A DNA stretch of 43,293 nt from a phage. The stretch lies in the sequence record PV357169.1. One strand, given 5' to 3'. The notes under the pieces are model-generated. The model saw nothing but the letters and a program-made list of their open reading frames with translations, ran no database searches and was not told the DNA's origin. Of this stretch, positions 3,857 to 10,465 are shown in pieces. Each line of letters starts with the position of its first letter. Position 1 is the stretch's first letter. Position numbers and translations under genes: made by a program.

Positions 3857-4201
3857 ATGCTTACAGTAGACGAAACAGCGCTACTGTGCTGGCGCTTGCT
3901 AGAAACGCAGGGCAAGTGCGGGTGCCCGTGGGAAATATTCAAAGAGGTTCCAGATGAACTCAAGCAAATCGTGCCAGTCGAGCGCCGATTACTCCGCGTT
4001 AGAAAAGAGGGTATTGGCACTGTTCTCACAACCTATCGAGAGTATACAGAGTCTGCCGCGCGCAGATTGCAAGAGCACATTTCGTTCGATGTGGTTGCAG
4101 CACTCCTACGGTACGGGTATCGTGGAGCCTATACAAGATTTAGGGCGGCTGTGCGCTCGTATTATAAGCAGCGACAACTCTCAGCGTGGTATGCACGCTG
4201 A
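3857..4201 (+). CDS. Early protein, hypothetical (114 aa)
   Basis: Internal ATG of track ORF 3767-4201, with AAGGA RBS 8 nt upstream and no overlap with the preceding gene. Confidence 0.5.
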   Translation: MLTVDETALLCWRLLETQGKCGCPWEIFKEVPDELKQIVPVERRLLRVRKEGIGTVLTTYREYTESAARRLQEHISFDVVAALLRYGYRGAYTRFRAAVRSYYKQRQLSAWYAR

Positions 4202-4247
4202 ACTTTTAATGCATGATGAGATACTACTAACACCGGAGACAAAGAAA

Positions 4248-5948
4248 ATGCAAGGGACTAATAAAGTAACTGTAGACGTAAAAGTACCTGCCCACGAGGG
4301 TTGGACCATCAAATTTCCAGAAGGGGCCAATGCTCTTCCACTGAAGGATAGTATGTACTCTTCCGGGGATTACTGGTGCCAACTTCCCTACCTATCAACT
4401 CAAGGCCGTGCGCGCGTGCAAAGTAACAAAACCCGTGCGCTTTTGAATGGCTTTTATATGTTGTCAAGGGTGCTGCCGGGGTACCATGTAGCACTCGGCA
4501 ACTTTACAGCTGCAGGAGAGGAGTTGAGTGTATATACTGGGCCGCTGGGCACGGTTGATGTTAGTGACACTCTCCTGCATAACCTCTTTGGCTGTGCAGG
4601 TACCTGCGACCAAGCATTCGGTTTATCTAGCAGAAACTTCTATGATGGCCCTGACGTAGTTACAGAACGCGTAGTAGAAGCGGTCCAATACTTTACCGGA
4701 TACAAGGTGCACAAGCAGGCTATAGAGTTATTCGAAGAGATTATGCTAGCACCTACGTACTCCCTCCGGCGCAAATACCTTCGTGGGTACAGTGAAATTG
4801 ATGGGGATTACTGGGCAGCAACCTTGCTTATGCAGTTGCACGGATTTGTAGTATCTAGATTTGCAATCCCACTAGGTTTCGGCTTCCGCAACGGTGAGCC
4901 TGTAGTAATGCTGGGGCAGCCGCGATTACACAAAGACTACGCCGCTGTTACTGAGTATCGCTGTGTAGAGATGCGAGTAGGTAAGTGGCTCGCTAACTAT
5001 TACGGCAGCGGTGTAGACTTCAGGGAATGTATTGAAGACCTCAAAGCTATGAATGTGGAGCCTACTACATATCTTTGTAAGACCGAGCGGGAGTGGTACA
5101 ACGCATACGAGAATGGTCCTCGTAGCTGCATGACCGGATACAACTTCGAAGATAGCCCGGTGCGTGTATACGCTACGACTAGTCACGGCTTGCCGGACAA
5201 TAATCTGCGCCTGTTCATCCAGTATACTGGGGAACTTTTTGGTGACGACTTTGAAGTGCACGCCCGTGCTATCGTTAACATCGAAACCAATGAATATGTC
5301 CGTGCATATGGGGATGCTGCGGATGCCATCCTACGTGCTAACGGATATGAGTGCAATACAGACTGCTTAGATGGCGTACTACTGGCGCGTATTCCGCACC
5401 CTGAAAATGAAGGTGCCGTGCTTATGCCGTACTTGGATGGGAACCAAGACGGGGTGGATGAATTGGGCGGGGATGCATTCGTTATCTGCGACTGCTACGA
5501 CTACGAAGCGAAGGACGCTGCTGGTTACATTTGGATTGATGATGGTCACAGTGCTTGTGCAGAGTGTGGGGGACGTTTCGACGAGGATGACATGTACGTA
5601 GCTTGTGACGGTGGTTATGTATGCCCGCACTGCATCGGTGATACTTACGTACAGGTAGTGGGCCGCAGCATAGTGTACCCATCATGGGATTGCTCATGGT
5701 CTGACTACCACGACTCTTGGGTACTTGACCGGGACGTAGAACATTGTGCTGTAGAGGGTACAGTGCATGATGAAGAGCCAATGGCGTGCGTACAAGGGTA
5801 CAATGTTCTGAGTGTGCATGCCGAAGAGCACCCAGTGCACGGTATGATTCTCACGGAGTATGCTGCGTCCATATTGGATGAGCCCTACCTCGGTAATGAA
5901 GAAGCCGAAGAAGACAAAGAAGCTAAAGCAGAACAGGAGGCAGCTTAA
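4248..5948 (+). CDS. Large early protein of unknown function with a Cys-rich C-terminal region (CDCYDY, CAECGG, CPHC), ~566 aa
   Basis: Start chosen at ATG 4248 with GGAGA RBS (track ORF opens at 3954 but overlaps the previous gene); paired Cys motifs suggest metal binding. Confidence 0.55.
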   Translation: MQGTNKVTVDVKVPAHEGWTIKFPEGANALPLKDSMYSSGDYWCQLPYLSTQGRARVQSNKTRALLNGFYMLSRVLPGYHVALGNFTAAGEELSVYTGPLGTVDVSDTLLHNLFGCAGTCDQAFGLSSRNFYDGPDVVTERVVEAVQYFTGYKVHKQAIELFEEIMLAPTYSLRRKYLRGYSEIDGDYWAATLLMQLHGFVVSRFAIPLGFGFRNGEPVVMLGQPRLHKDYAAVTEYRCVEMRVGKWLANYYGSGVDFRECIEDLKAMNVEPTTYLCKTEREWYNAYENGPRSCMTGYNFEDSPVRVYATTSHGLPDNNLRLFIQYTGELFGDDFEVHARAIVNIETNEYVRAYGDAADAILRANGYECNTDCLDGVLLARIPHPENEGAVLMPYLDGNQDGVDELGGDAFVICDCYDYEAKDAAGYIWIDDGHSACAECGGRFDEDDMYVACDGGYVCPHCIGDTYVQVVGRSIVYPSWDCSWSDYHDSWVLDRDVEHCAVEGTVHDEEPMACVQGYNVLSVHAEEHPVHGMILTEYAASILDEPYLGNEEAEEDKEAKAEQEAA

Positions 5949-6982
5949 TGTACGGTGTTGACCTTAAACTACTGACAAAGATACTAACAACGCACCGACC
6001 TAGCTGGGGTAGTACCAAATGGTTTGAACCTCTACTTAGTAGCGCTCTTGCTGGTGCAGAGCACTACGTTAGGGATGCTCATGGTAACTACTTTGTGCTT
6101 ATTGGTGGCTCTGAACAGAGTGATGTAGCATTTACATCACACCTCGACACAGTGGCCCGGCCTGGTAGTGCTGCGCCAGACATTGCAACCACTAACAAGG
6201 GTGTAATGTTCCTGCGGAATCCACAGGTGGCGGATTGTCTAGGTGCAGACTGTGGTGCTGGTATCTACTTGATGCTGGAGATGATTAAGCGGGGAGTACA
6301 TGGACGTTACTGCTTCTTCGTGGATGAAGAGGTAGGCTGTGAAGGCAGCAGTGCATCCGCCAAGGACGACACTGGCTTCTGGACTGGTGTCAAGGCAATG
6401 ATTAGTTTTGACCGCCGAGGTGATGAGATCATTACGCATCAACGATACCAGCGTTGCTGTTCTGATACGTTCGCAAAGGAGCTGGCGGCCCGACTAGGAC
6501 GAACGGATGCGCACTTACAAAAAGGGGTATACACTGACTCTGCTGAGTTCATGCAGATTATCCCCGAATGCACTAACGTAGGTGTAGGGTACATGCACGA
6601 ACATACACCAGATGAGGTGCTGGACCTTAGCATTCTTGGTAGCGTACTGGAGCGCGTACTTAGTCCGGGTACATTCAAGCACCTGCCGATTGAGCGTGAT
6701 CCTAAAGTAGTGGAACCGGATGCGTGGTTATCTGCCTATACGCATCCCCTAACGATGCCTCTGGATGTTCCCCCTGCGGAAGATCCGCATTTACTAGCAG
6801 CGTTTAAGGAGGTGTCACAACTTTCTAAGCAGCAACTGATTAGCTGGGTGCTAGATAACCCAGCAAGAGCGGCGGAATACATCATGGTGTATTCTGATTA
6901 TGGCTTCAAAGAAGAGCTGATTGAACTAGGCACCCGAGTTGTAGAGGACTGGGGTGGATACGATAATATTGTGGAGGGTTGA
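5948..6982 (+). CDS. Putative M20/M28-like zinc metallopeptidase (344 aa)
   Basis: Ordered motifs SHLDTV, GADCGAG, DEEVGCEGS and a later His (GYMHEHT) resemble the metal-ligand pattern of M20-type peptidases; TAATG coupling to the upstream gene. Confidence 0.45.
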   Translation: MYGVDLKLLTKILTTHRPSWGSTKWFEPLLSSALAGAEHYVRDAHGNYFVLIGGSEQSDVAFTSHLDTVARPGSAAPDIATTNKGVMFLRNPQVADCLGADCGAGIYLMLEMIKRGVHGRYCFFVDEEVGCEGSSASAKDDTGFWTGVKAMISFDRRGDEIITHQRYQRCCSDTFAKELAARLGRTDAHLQKGVYTDSAEFMQIIPECTNVGVGYMHEHTPDEVLDLSILGSVLERVLSPGTFKHLPIERDPKVVEPDAWLSAYTHPLTMPLDVPPAEDPHLLAAFKEVSQLSKQQLISWVLDNPARAAEYIMVYSDYGFKEELIELGTRVVEDWGGYDNIVEG

Positions 6983-6984
6983 TT

Positions 6985-7452
6985 ATGTCTAAGTTTAAAG
7001 TTGGTGATAAAGTAGTACGCAAATCACCCGACGACAGCTCGTCGTTTAAGAAGCGCCAAGGGGATTTTGATTACTACACAGTTACAGCTATATCCTCAGG
7101 CGGTCACTGGTTACGGTTGAACAATTGTACTATCGATGGTGACTGGTACCCGTGGTATGCATCTAACTTTGAGCTGTACCAAGAGCCGGACGACGAGCTG
7201 CCACCGGTTCCAGCTAGTGTGGCTTACATGAACTCCAAGCGCGACCGCGGCAACGACCAGCGGCTAGTCCTAGAAAGATGCAGTTGGACTGATGAGAACC
7301 TACTCTACATCGGAATAGTTCCTAAAAAGAACAGCACCCGGGCAGAGCAGGAGATTGGTATTAATATGAGTCCTGATGCAGCCCTGCAACTAGCACACGA
7401 CCTTCGTCGCATGGCTATGGATATCAAACGTAAGGGGAAAGCAAATGCATAA
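6985..7452 (+). CDS. Hypothetical protein (155 aa)
   Basis: GGAGGG RBS 6 nt upstream of ATG 6985 (track starts at TTG 6979). Confidence 0.6.
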   Translation: MSKFKVGDKVVRKSPDDSSSFKKRQGDFDYYTVTAISSGGHWLRLNNCTIDGDWYPWYASNFELYQEPDDELPPVPASVAYMNSKRDRGNDQRLVLERCSWTDENLLYIGIVPKKNSTRAEQEIGINMSPDAALQLAHDLRRMAMDIKRKGKANA

Positions 7453-7648
7453 AATTATCACGTACAAAATGCCGCCTAAGAGTATTGTGGTTGGCATTCC
7501 GTTCACTTGGGGATCATGCAGCTTTTGGGTTATAAAGGTAGAGGGTGGCTACATATACCGTCTGGACGATGGACGGAAGGTGGATGTACCCGAAAGAGAC
7601 ATTTTATTGTGTGGAATAGTATACGCTAACAGAATCGAGATTAAGTAA
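7445..7648 (+). CDS. Hypothetical protein (67 aa)
   Basis: AAGGGGA RBS; overlapping stop/start with neighbours. Confidence 0.5.
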   Translation: MHKIITYKMPPKSIVVGIPFTWGSCSFWVIKVEGGYIYRLDDGRKVDVPERDILLCGIVYANRIEIK

Positions 7649-8439
7649 TGGACCAGCCCTGGCTTAGAGCGTGCAAGCGCCTGGCCGTGGGGCAGAGGGC
7701 ACGCTTTCGGTGCTGCGGCAGGGACTCCGCCGGGGTGCTCTATAATAACCCGGATGCCTGGGAATACTATTGCCACCGCTGCAAACAGGTAGGCAAGGAG
7801 CGCAAGCAGTACCAGCGCATACAGTTACAGGAAGAGCCGAGGGTGCAGCCCTCTGCACCTGCAGATGCAATTTGCATTAGCCAAGCGCCTGCAGAAACGC
7901 AGAGTTTTATTTACGGATTCCTTGCTTCAAAGGGAATCATGCCTGAAATGGTGGGGGATGCAGAATGGAGCAAAGAGAAACAGCGGATAATCTTCCGTGT
8001 CGGAAGCGCTGCTCTGGGCCGTGCAGTACATGCTCGGCAGCAACCGAAGTGGGTAATGTACGGCCAGCCAATAGCTTTCGCTGTCGCGGAACCTGCCGTA
8101 GCACCGGCTGTAGCTGCGGGCGCTCCTCTAAAGGTCGTGCTCACAGAGGACTTACTCTCAGCCCTGAAGATACAGCACGCAGTTACGAGCTACAGTGCGT
8201 TGAACGTGCAGGCTATAGCTATGCTGGGTACACGCTTGCCCACGCAGCTAAGGGCCTGGCTGATTCAGAATCGCCCGGAAGTGATTCTAATGTTGGACAA
8301 TGACCCGGCAGGACATGCTGGGGTAGCGGCAACACGCCGGGCACTGCGCCCGTTCATGCAGTGCCGAGAACACTACTTCGCTGCGGATCCTAAGGACGCA
8401 GAAATCAAAGAGATACTGGAGGCATTAACTTGGACTTAA
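7648..8439 (+). CDS. DNA primase (zinc-ribbon + TOPRIM)
   Basis: CCGRDSAG...YYCHRCKQ zinc-binding pattern; acidic TOPRIM motifs LTEDLL and MLDNDPAG. Confidence 0.7.
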   Translation: MDQPWLRACKRLAVGQRARFRCCGRDSAGVLYNNPDAWEYYCHRCKQVGKERKQYQRIQLQEEPRVQPSAPADAICISQAPAETQSFIYGFLASKGIMPEMVGDAEWSKEKQRIIFRVGSAALGRAVHARQQPKWVMYGQPIAFAVAEPAVAPAVAAGAPLKVVLTEDLLSALKIQHAVTSYSALNVQAIAMLGTRLPTQLRAWLIQNRPEVILMLDNDPAGHAGVAATRRALRPFMQCREHYFAADPKDAEIKEILEALTWT

Positions 8440-9871: not shown

Positions 9872-10019
9872 ACCGTCCGACATTAACTATCTCGACGAAG
9901 AGGTAATTAAGGCGTACGCTGCATCTGTGGGTACTTTCAGCATACGGCCCGTGCTAATTAGCAGCCGGCTGATTGTGCACTTGGCTGTCAATAAGGCGCG
10001 GAGGATTAATTGGAGATGA
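9864..10019 (+). CDS. Hypothetical protein (51 aa)
   Basis: Internal ATG of track ORF 9831-10019 with GGAGAAGG RBS. Confidence 0.35.
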   Translation: MLKPSDINYLDEEVIKAYAASVGTFSIRPVLISSRLIVHLAVNKARRINWR

Positions 10020-10465
10020 CAGATTGTATCGACCACGGGCAGAAGGGAAGCACTTGCCGAGGAAAGTGCGCTGGATATGGCCGCTCCAGATTTGATGGAG
10101 AGACAACTGGAAGCCACCGCAAAGCGTATTGTATAGCCCACAACTTGAAGCTGAGTGATATCGCGGGACTTGTAGTCCGGCATTCGTGTGACAATCCTCG
10201 GTGCATAAATCCGGAGCACCTGCTACTAGGGACTTCTAGTGATAATATGCAGGACCGAAATAAAGGTGCGCGTAATTTGCTGGGCAGCCGCAACCCTGCT
10301 GCCAGACTTACCCCAGAAGACGTGCACAGTATACGAGAAGCATATGCTGGCGGTGAGACCCAGGTATCTATAGCGAGACGCTTCGGGATAAGTCAAGGAT
10401 ACATATCTAATATCATAAAGGGGAGGGTATGGAATGAGCAGAAGCATCCTGATAACGGATTATGA
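10010..10465 (+). CDS. HNH homing endonuclease (copy 1)
   Basis: HSCDNPRCINPEHLLLGT HNH core; paralog of 13155-13589; 3' end overlaps the DNA polymerase start by 32 nt. Confidence 0.8.
   Translation: MEMTDCIDHGQKGSTCRGKCAGYGRSRFDGETTGSHRKAYCIAHNLKLSDIAGLVVRHSCDNPRCINPEHLLLGTSSDNMQDRNKGARNLLGSRNPAARLTPEDVHSIREAYAGGETQVSIARRFGISQGYISNIIKGRVWNEQKHPDNGL

Follow-up and report, generated by a model that had tools for sequence, protein, structure and literature searches.

In the 43,293-nucleotide (nt) phage genome of sequence record PV357169.1 (this whole stretch of DNA is called the window here), two adjacent genes on the + strand at positions 4248-6982 encode a 566-amino acid (aa) protein of an uncharacterised family (gene B, PHROG 6980; 4248..5948, stop codon included) and a 344-aa protein predicted to be a clan-MH di-zinc hydrolase (gene P, PHROG 4191; 5948..6982, stop codon included). 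B and P are found side by side in distantly related phages whose other genes differ, and the two proteins probably work as one unit. While the peptidase annotation itself is not new, the linkage of B and P as a conserved cassette is, and no report of the pair as such was found in the searchable literature. The sequence signals of both proteins are far beyond chance; PHROG 6980 ("unknown function") matches B with E=0 at profile positions 97-655, PHROG 4191 ("peptidase", category "other") matches P with E=2.6e-143, both matches are full-length, and both proteins have hundreds of homologues. A first-pass annotation, made from the letters of the window, had proposed that the two genes form a module outside the well-characterised housekeeping families of phages. 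The linkage described below, which holds in both directions across distant loci, supports the module; as neither protein was placed in a housekeeping family and P has the MH fold, that proposal stands on these points as well.

Loci carrying the pair were collected from either gene. Starting from B, the pattern [VAI]Yx[NHK]GPxSCM retrieved 106 viral relatives, of which 80 were kept, and the open reading frames (ORFs) of the loci were searched with iterated profiles. In 89 of 91 loci, the next gene downstream of B on its strand was P. Among the 38 distant loci (25-39% core identity) this was true of 36; of the two others, one is cut by the contig end and the other, L085, carries a different peptidase. 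Starting from P, at least 548 viral contigs in IMG/VR were matched, and among the matches listed, 36 of 37 informative distant loci had B as the gene directly upstream of P; the exception is L160, where B is found 1.5 kilobases (kb) away on the opposite strand. Whichever gene is used as the starting point, the partner is therefore the direct neighbour in about 97% of the informative distant loci (on the P side, among the matches listed). The sampled loci are phage contigs of 4-128 kb and prophages. Clustering of all neighbouring ORFs in the loci collected from B showed no shared family other than B and P, and no third partner is conserved around the pair. The annotated neighbours are mostly replication and recombination genes (DNA polymerase A, DnaB-type helicases, primases) and integrases. 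Since only B and P are conserved while the surroundings vary, selection appears to act on the pair itself. A 155-aa ORF downstream of P was also considered as a third partner and was rejected, as it is not conserved outside Drulisvirus-like genomes.

The pair was also found in Vibrio and Pectobacterium podophages, and P is adjacent even to B homologues with long N-terminal extensions (770-793 residues). In the chromosomes of two alphaproteobacteria, Bradyrhizobium (L092) and Xanthobacter (L093), P is encoded in prophage-like regions with B directly upstream; the Xanthobacter element looks like a temperate T7-like phage because a T7-type tail protein, a T7-type terminase and an integrase occur together in it. 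The bacterial distribution of the pair rests on these two prophages, which were reached through the peptidase, and a narrow-pattern search of genome contigs retrieved no relatives.

Several loci show other arrangements of the two genes. Two tandem B paralogues without zinc ribbons are followed by P in L080 (4323-8003), and two B-core ORFs flank P in L078 (4629-7190). The order is reversed in L180 (4797-7327), a 642-kb megaphage in which P is followed by a weak B-like ORF and which has four P-like copies, as against five in another megaphage record, LR756503. The megaphages carry several copies of the peptidase gene and at most a weak B-like ORF nearby. In L085 (3853-5729), the gene directly after B encodes, instead of P, a RadC-like JAB domain protein (PF04002, E=3.4e-36) and overlaps B by about 40 nt; the B homologue at this locus has four or five tandem CxxC...CxxC ribbons. 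RadC-like JAB proteins have, like P, a zinc-dependent peptidase-type fold and are common in phages and mobile elements, although the two folds are unrelated; to our knowledge, no function has been assigned to RadC-like proteins. This replacement suggests that B needs a peptidase partner as such.

P has the alpha/beta catalytic-domain fold of clan MH, and a profile built from 30 P homologues retrieved PepT (3gb0, 2.8e-10), a tripeptidase (1.8e-8) and the M42 enzyme TET1 (2e-6); exopeptidases acting on free peptide termini are the closest structural relatives of P. The PepT-like catalytic domain comprises residues 1-245 (5948..6682, + strand). It contains the predicted metal ligands H65 (6140-6142), D101 (6248-6250), E128 (6329-6331), D155 (6410-6412) and H219 (6602-6604) and the predicted general base E127 (6326-6328), all encoded on the + strand. 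These six residues align with the active site of PepT and are invariant in the 30 homologues; together with D67 they are also invariant in a set of 121 homologues (~35% identity). The motifs that the first-pass annotation had pointed out, SHLDTV (H65, D67), GADCGAG (D101), DEEVGCEGS (E127, E128) and a later histidine (H219), are therefore all present and without variation. R156, S172, T196, D197, E207, C208, N210, E223 and R250 are further invariant residues in the 121 homologues and are specific to the family. A conserved helical domain follows at the C-terminus (residues 280-344, 6785..6979, + strand) with P305, A309, L312 and G319 near-invariant. Within Drulisvirus, P shows 82-86% identity, and the C-terminal domain (86%) is as conserved as the catalytic domain.

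The same annotation had called P M20-like, which is correct for the fold and the active site and does not extend to the rest of the M20 architecture. Peptidase T and other M20B tripeptidases (3gb0, 1vix, 3rza; MEROPS clan MH) share the metal ligands and the general base with P, but the M20 lid and dimerisation domain, an insertion that separates the fourth metal ligand from the fifth (PepT residues ~152-302), has no counterpart in P on comparison with PepT. Conversely, the C-terminal helical domain, the family-specific invariant residues and the pairing with B are features of P. In Pfam, P missed the M20 cut-off (PF01546; 17.4 versus 24.6 bits), also fell below the threshold for M42, and just passed that for M28 (PF04389; 23.1 versus a gathering threshold of 21.3, E=6.6e-5). 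M28 aminopeptidases (the Aeromonas and Streptomyces enzymes and bacterial glutaminyl cyclases) resemble P in being single domains without an inserted lid and in having a similar ligand spacing, and bacterial relatives of P are named "M28 family peptidase" by NCBI. P is accordingly best described as a predicted hydrolase with a PepT-like clan-MH catalytic domain that lacks the lid and is scored as M28 by Pfam. It is a variant of a well-known enzyme clan and has been annotated before; the peptidase annotation is routine in public records, and in the PhiM1-like phages the peptidase is the only early gene that was given a putative function (PMC6115819).

B, by comparison, represents a conserved-domain family for which no description was found in the searchable literature and which has an invariant polar site. 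No Pfam, NCBIfam or PADLOC match was obtained for B, and its PDB sequence matches were zinc-finger noise only; 30 diverse homologues likewise gave no Pfam or NCBIfam domain, and hence no match to an acetyltransferase profile. An exhaustive HMMER search placed the relatives of B in 341 clusters at 50% identity, which have only residues ~235-475 in common. Within this part, the conserved core domain (residues 231-400, 4938..5447, + strand) contains the invariant residues C294, R340 and D397, the near-invariant residues Y287, G290, S293, M295, Y308, Y354, L362, G366, P394 and Y395, and the conserved P291; C294 is located in the motif GPRSCM (residues 290-295, 5115..5132, + strand). Nearly all duplicate or split copies of B retain Y287, S293, C294, M295, R340, Y354, P394, Y395 and D397, and this includes copies without a zinc ribbon. 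Such retention is more in keeping with a putative site of catalysis or ligand binding than with a scaffold.

An AlphaFold2 (AF2) model of B, with a pLDDT of 89, gave no match with E < 0.25 in a Foldseek search against the PDB. The order of the predicted elements in residues 273-364, together with an R-x-x-G-x-A loop, is compatible with the N-terminal two-thirds of the GNAT fold. In this loop (R352-A-Y-G355-D-A357; GNAT motif A is R/Q-x-x-G-x-G/A) the R, Y and G are conserved and the last position is not. On comparison with GNAT-fold acyl-CoA N-acyltransferases (e.g., PDB 3i9s, 5f46 and 4yfj), "GNAT-like" is a lead for the core of B, not a classification.

The core is followed by a predicted metal-binding site, a zinc ribbon formed by two CxxC pairs about 18 residues apart (C437-x2-C440 ... 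C459-x2-C462; 5556..5633, + strand). These four cysteines are conserved in at least 90% of 132 B homologues, short strands are predicted around them in the AF2 model, and the only PDB sequence matches of the ribbon are zinc fingers (RNF31, E=0.007; Rubicon; LIM). The ribbon is missing in some B paralogues and present in several tandem copies in some other relatives. Among the cysteine clusters listed in the first-pass annotation, CAEC (C437/C440) and CPHC (C459/C462) correspond to this ribbon, and CDC (C414/C416) is present without being one of the conserved pairs, whereas no CxxxxC was found further towards the C-terminus, where C482, C500 and C514 are unpaired cysteines. At the other end of the protein, residues 1-230 (4248..4937, + strand) form a fast-evolving, lineage-specific N-terminal region, as judged from alignment and identity. 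Fewer than ~30% of distant homologues align over most of it, and identity within Drulisvirus is 36% for residues 1-105 and 61% for residues 106-230 versus 83% for the core.

The reading frame of B is open from position 3954 and overlaps an upstream 114-aa gene (3857-4201); in all seven related genomes compared, the frame is open for 240-378 nt upstream of the true start. Variable sites were counted per codon position in 7 related genomes. Between 3954 and 4198, the third codon position of the upstream gene is variable at 61 of 81 sites, and the B frame shows a non-coding pattern (26/82, 61/81 and 30/80 for the first, second and third positions). From 4248 on, the B frame shows the pattern expected of a coding sequence, with 12, 19 and 29 of 51 sites variable, respectively. 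B therefore starts at the ATG at 4248-4250, as had been proposed, and ends with the TAA at 5946-5948; the start is preceded at a distance of 8 nt by the Shine-Dalgarno sequence GGAGA (4235..4239, + strand), which is conserved in 6 of 6 related genomes. The 664-aa product annotated in several public records, among them Minorna and KPV811, is ruled out by the same test as an over-extension. The open, non-coding B frame upstream of the start explains why this product is listed in Minorna, KPV811 and many metagenomic gene calls, and positions 1-96 of the PHROG 6980 profile are probably an artefact of such over-extended annotations.

At the junction of the two genes (5935..5950, + strand), a Shine-Dalgarno sequence for P, AGGAGG (5935-5940), is followed by five nucleotides and TAATG (5946-5950), in which the stop codon of B (5946-5948) overlaps the start codon of P (5948-5950), as had been read earlier. 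The stop of B and the start of P overlap or are no more than 15 nt apart in 77 of 92 distinct junctions. B ends in an acidic helical tail (residues 546-566, 5883..5945, + strand) with the terminus EQEAA. Two C-terminal alanines (the AA end) are found in 51 of 127 representatives of the B family, one per 50%-identity cluster (40%), and alanine is the last residue (A end) in 73 of the 127. The AA end is found in 26 of 267 neighbouring ORFs (Fisher p=8e-12 versus the B representatives), a background of 9.7% that is oddly high and redundant. Residue -3 of B is most often E, followed by L, V or I, and some of the ends are ssrA-like (LAA, VAA, IAA). The AA end might act as a degron of the ssrA type, or the exopeptidase might recognise it as a tail. 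It is found at 38 of 66 overlapping junctions versus 2 of 15 with gaps of more than 15 nt, a gapped class that consists of few independent lineages; since the AA end is thus concentrated at overlapping or near-abutting junctions, a constraint of the coupling region at the nucleotide level is possible. Translation of the P Shine-Dalgarno sequence can account for the Glu at -3 and for a G-starting codon at -2, but not for the last Ala of B, and the AA end is also present where the P Shine-Dalgarno sequence is located 3' of the stop of B.

Taken together, these results can be read as describing a heteromeric two-protein enzyme in which P, an exopeptidase without a lid, relies on B for substrate recognition and possibly for a second chemistry of the transferase type, with the end of a host macromolecule as the target; this reading is quite possible while falling short of probable. 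Positions 4248-6982 would then form a self-contained two-protein enzyme cassette. P would act as the catalytic hydrolase, having an intact PepT-like (M20B-type) di-zinc site without the substrate-binding lid. In M20 enzymes the lid domain closes the active site and helps to bind the substrate; B, made by translation coupled to that of P, may bind P and supply the missing substrate recognition or take the role of the lid. Recognition would fall to the fast-evolving N-terminal region and the zinc ribbon or ribbons of B, and a faster evolution of the N-terminus than of the B core or P is as expected of a part that recognises targets. A second chemical activity, putatively of the transferase type, would probably reside at the Cys294/Arg340/Asp397 site in the weakly GNAT-like core. 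Early in infection, one end of a host macromolecule would be modified and trimmed by B and P together, and the simplest such target would be a host protein, at its N- or C-terminus.

Joint action of the two proteins is suggested because the linkage is strict in both directions while other neighbours change, because gene order, strand and translational coupling are kept, because the catalytic site of P is intact and the polar site of B is kept in nearly every paralogue, and because P has once been replaced by an unrelated peptidase. Several points weigh on the other side. The replacement by a RadC-like protein is a single locus, and a search of IMG/VR for relatives gave L085 itself only. The structure models are of single chains only. 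M28 and M42 enzymes are active in the absence of an M20-type lid, so that catalysis by P may not depend on a partner. Distant P-like hydrolases without B also exist; in Thermus phage P74-26 (L179), the "metal-dependent hydrolase" gene P74p54, with 36% identity to P over 58% of the query, is coupled to a gene for an unrelated 164-aa helical protein with no B homologue nearby, and the tight linkage is therefore a property of a hydrolase subfamily and not of all such hydrolases. Finally, no result ties the pair to a substrate, a host pathway or a defence system.

Other explanations of the pair would assign different substrates to it, or none in common. B and P could constitute a two-step small-molecule pathway, with B as a GNAT-like acyl- or aminoacyl-transferase and P as the matching deacylase or amidohydrolase, following the protect-deprotect logic of ArgA/ArgE or DapD/DapE and acting in succession; the substrate would be a metabolite, a precursor of the cell wall or an immune signal that contains an amino acid, rather than a protein. 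This is unlikely, as the GNAT assignment is weak and no enzyme of an intermediate step and no transporter was ever linked to the pair; moreover, B has a hypervariable N-terminal domain and zinc ribbons, which suit the recognition of a macromolecule better than the chemistry of a metabolite, and the presence of a JAB protein in place of P points to a protein substrate, the JAB fold being known for protein and isopeptide substrates. A protein substrate could also be B itself. P might trim or dock on the acidic -AA tail of B, or this tail might be an ssrA-like degron for ClpXP that makes B short-lived, so that the pair would time an early function of B alone. The excess of AA ends in the B family over neighbouring ORFs and the occurrence of LAA, which is the end of the ssrA tag, are consistent with this, as are the exopeptidases acting on free termini among the nearest structural relatives of P and the single replacement of P by a JAB protein, given that JAB peptidases trim the C-terminal tails of carrier proteins in other systems. 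Against it, the AA ends are concentrated where a nucleotide-level constraint may produce them, the background to which they were compared is oddly high and redundant, and the RadC-linked B homologue of L085 has no AA end; P acting on B, or timing it, is thus rather improbable.

It is more doubtful still that the two proteins have independent functions, with P as a stand-alone aminopeptidase for scavenging or turnover, B as a zinc-ribbon nucleic-acid binder of the replication module, and their adjacency as inherited synteny. The pair is often located beside primase, helicase and DNA polymerase genes, zinc ribbons are common in replication proteins, and P-like hydrolases occur without B in P74-26 and possibly in Bacillus phages. 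However, the pair persists at 25-40% identity while its other neighbours change, on contigs of 4-128 kb and in prophages, with order, strand and tight junction kept, and even the rearranged loci L078, L080, L160 and L180 keep both genes within a few kb of each other. Independent functions are therefore highly improbable.

In its most specific form, the two-protein enzyme would include B as a Cys-dependent transferase of a new class, distantly related to GNAT enzymes and possibly using acyl-CoA or aminoacyl-tRNA, which together with P would make up a phage system for editing protein termini, as a widespread strategy of early takeover or anti-defence. This version is distinctly unlikely; if true, it would mean that phages cut back the termini (N or C) of host or defence proteins and tag them anew, which might make or erase degrons, with the target chosen by the fast-evolving N-terminal domain of B. 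A role in host takeover or anti-defence, which had been suggested from the early position of the genes, is possible in more general terms, as it is compatible with this position and with the fast-evolving N-terminus of B, and no result speaks to it directly. With B, P and the two ORFs beside them as queries, PADLOC gave no match at E values up to 1, its library being one of defence and not anti-defence proteins. A literature search for functional studies on KP34 or Drulisvirus early genes, phage M28 or M20 peptidases and anti-defence metallopeptidases found mentions at the level of annotation only. Taking into consideration that the pair is present in Drulisvirus phages under development for Klebsiella therapy, it bears on the safety and host-range assessment of these phages, and as a conserved early cassette it is a tractable target in which to look for a new host-manipulation or counter-defence activity. 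Candidate functional residues are C294, R340 and D397 in B and H65 and E127 in P.

With its 43.3 kb, the window spans the complete genome of a podophage that is KP34-like (Autographiviridae, Slopekvirinae, Drulisvirus) and has all its genes on the + strand. Positions 4000-7500 are matched by 246 phage records, with 93-94% identity to Klebsiella phage KPV811 and Escherichia phage Minorna; in the public annotation of these relatives, B is a "hypothetical protein" and P a "peptidase". A sigma-70-like site at 1495-1523 (TTGACA-17 nt-TAGATT, 10/12 matches) is likely to be the start of early transcription towards the cassette, and host promoters similar to this site have been reported for KP34-like phages (PMC4411677). 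This site is followed by small ORFs, B, P, a Toprim primase (7648-8439, + strand), a helicase, an HNH endonuclease and the DNA polymerase, of which the helicase gene was named from the annotation of its Minorna counterpart and the polymerase was placed by synteny with Minorna. The pair is thus located at the boundary between early and replication genes, in agreement with the early position given to it before. Downstream of the sigma-70-like match and upstream of the replication genes, the cassette is presumably transcribed by the host RNA polymerase.

Two further features of the window were observed. The HNH endonuclease is a free-standing protein of 151 aa (10010-10465; Pfam HNH_3, E=3.3e-7) with a C-terminal helix-turn-helix, and its gene is located between the helicase and DNA polymerase genes, overlapping the polymerase start. 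It looks like a homing-endonuclease insertion because Minorna carries two small ORFs at this place. At 4181-4210, at the 3' end of the upstream gene and 38 nt ahead of the B start, an 8-bp stem (5 G-C pairs) is followed by ACTTTTAATG. The stem has a terminator-like score, the total number of terminator-like sites in the region is not above chance, and its conservation is inseparable from the coding constraint of the upstream gene; a possible role of the stem is attenuation or RNA processing in front of the B-P unit.

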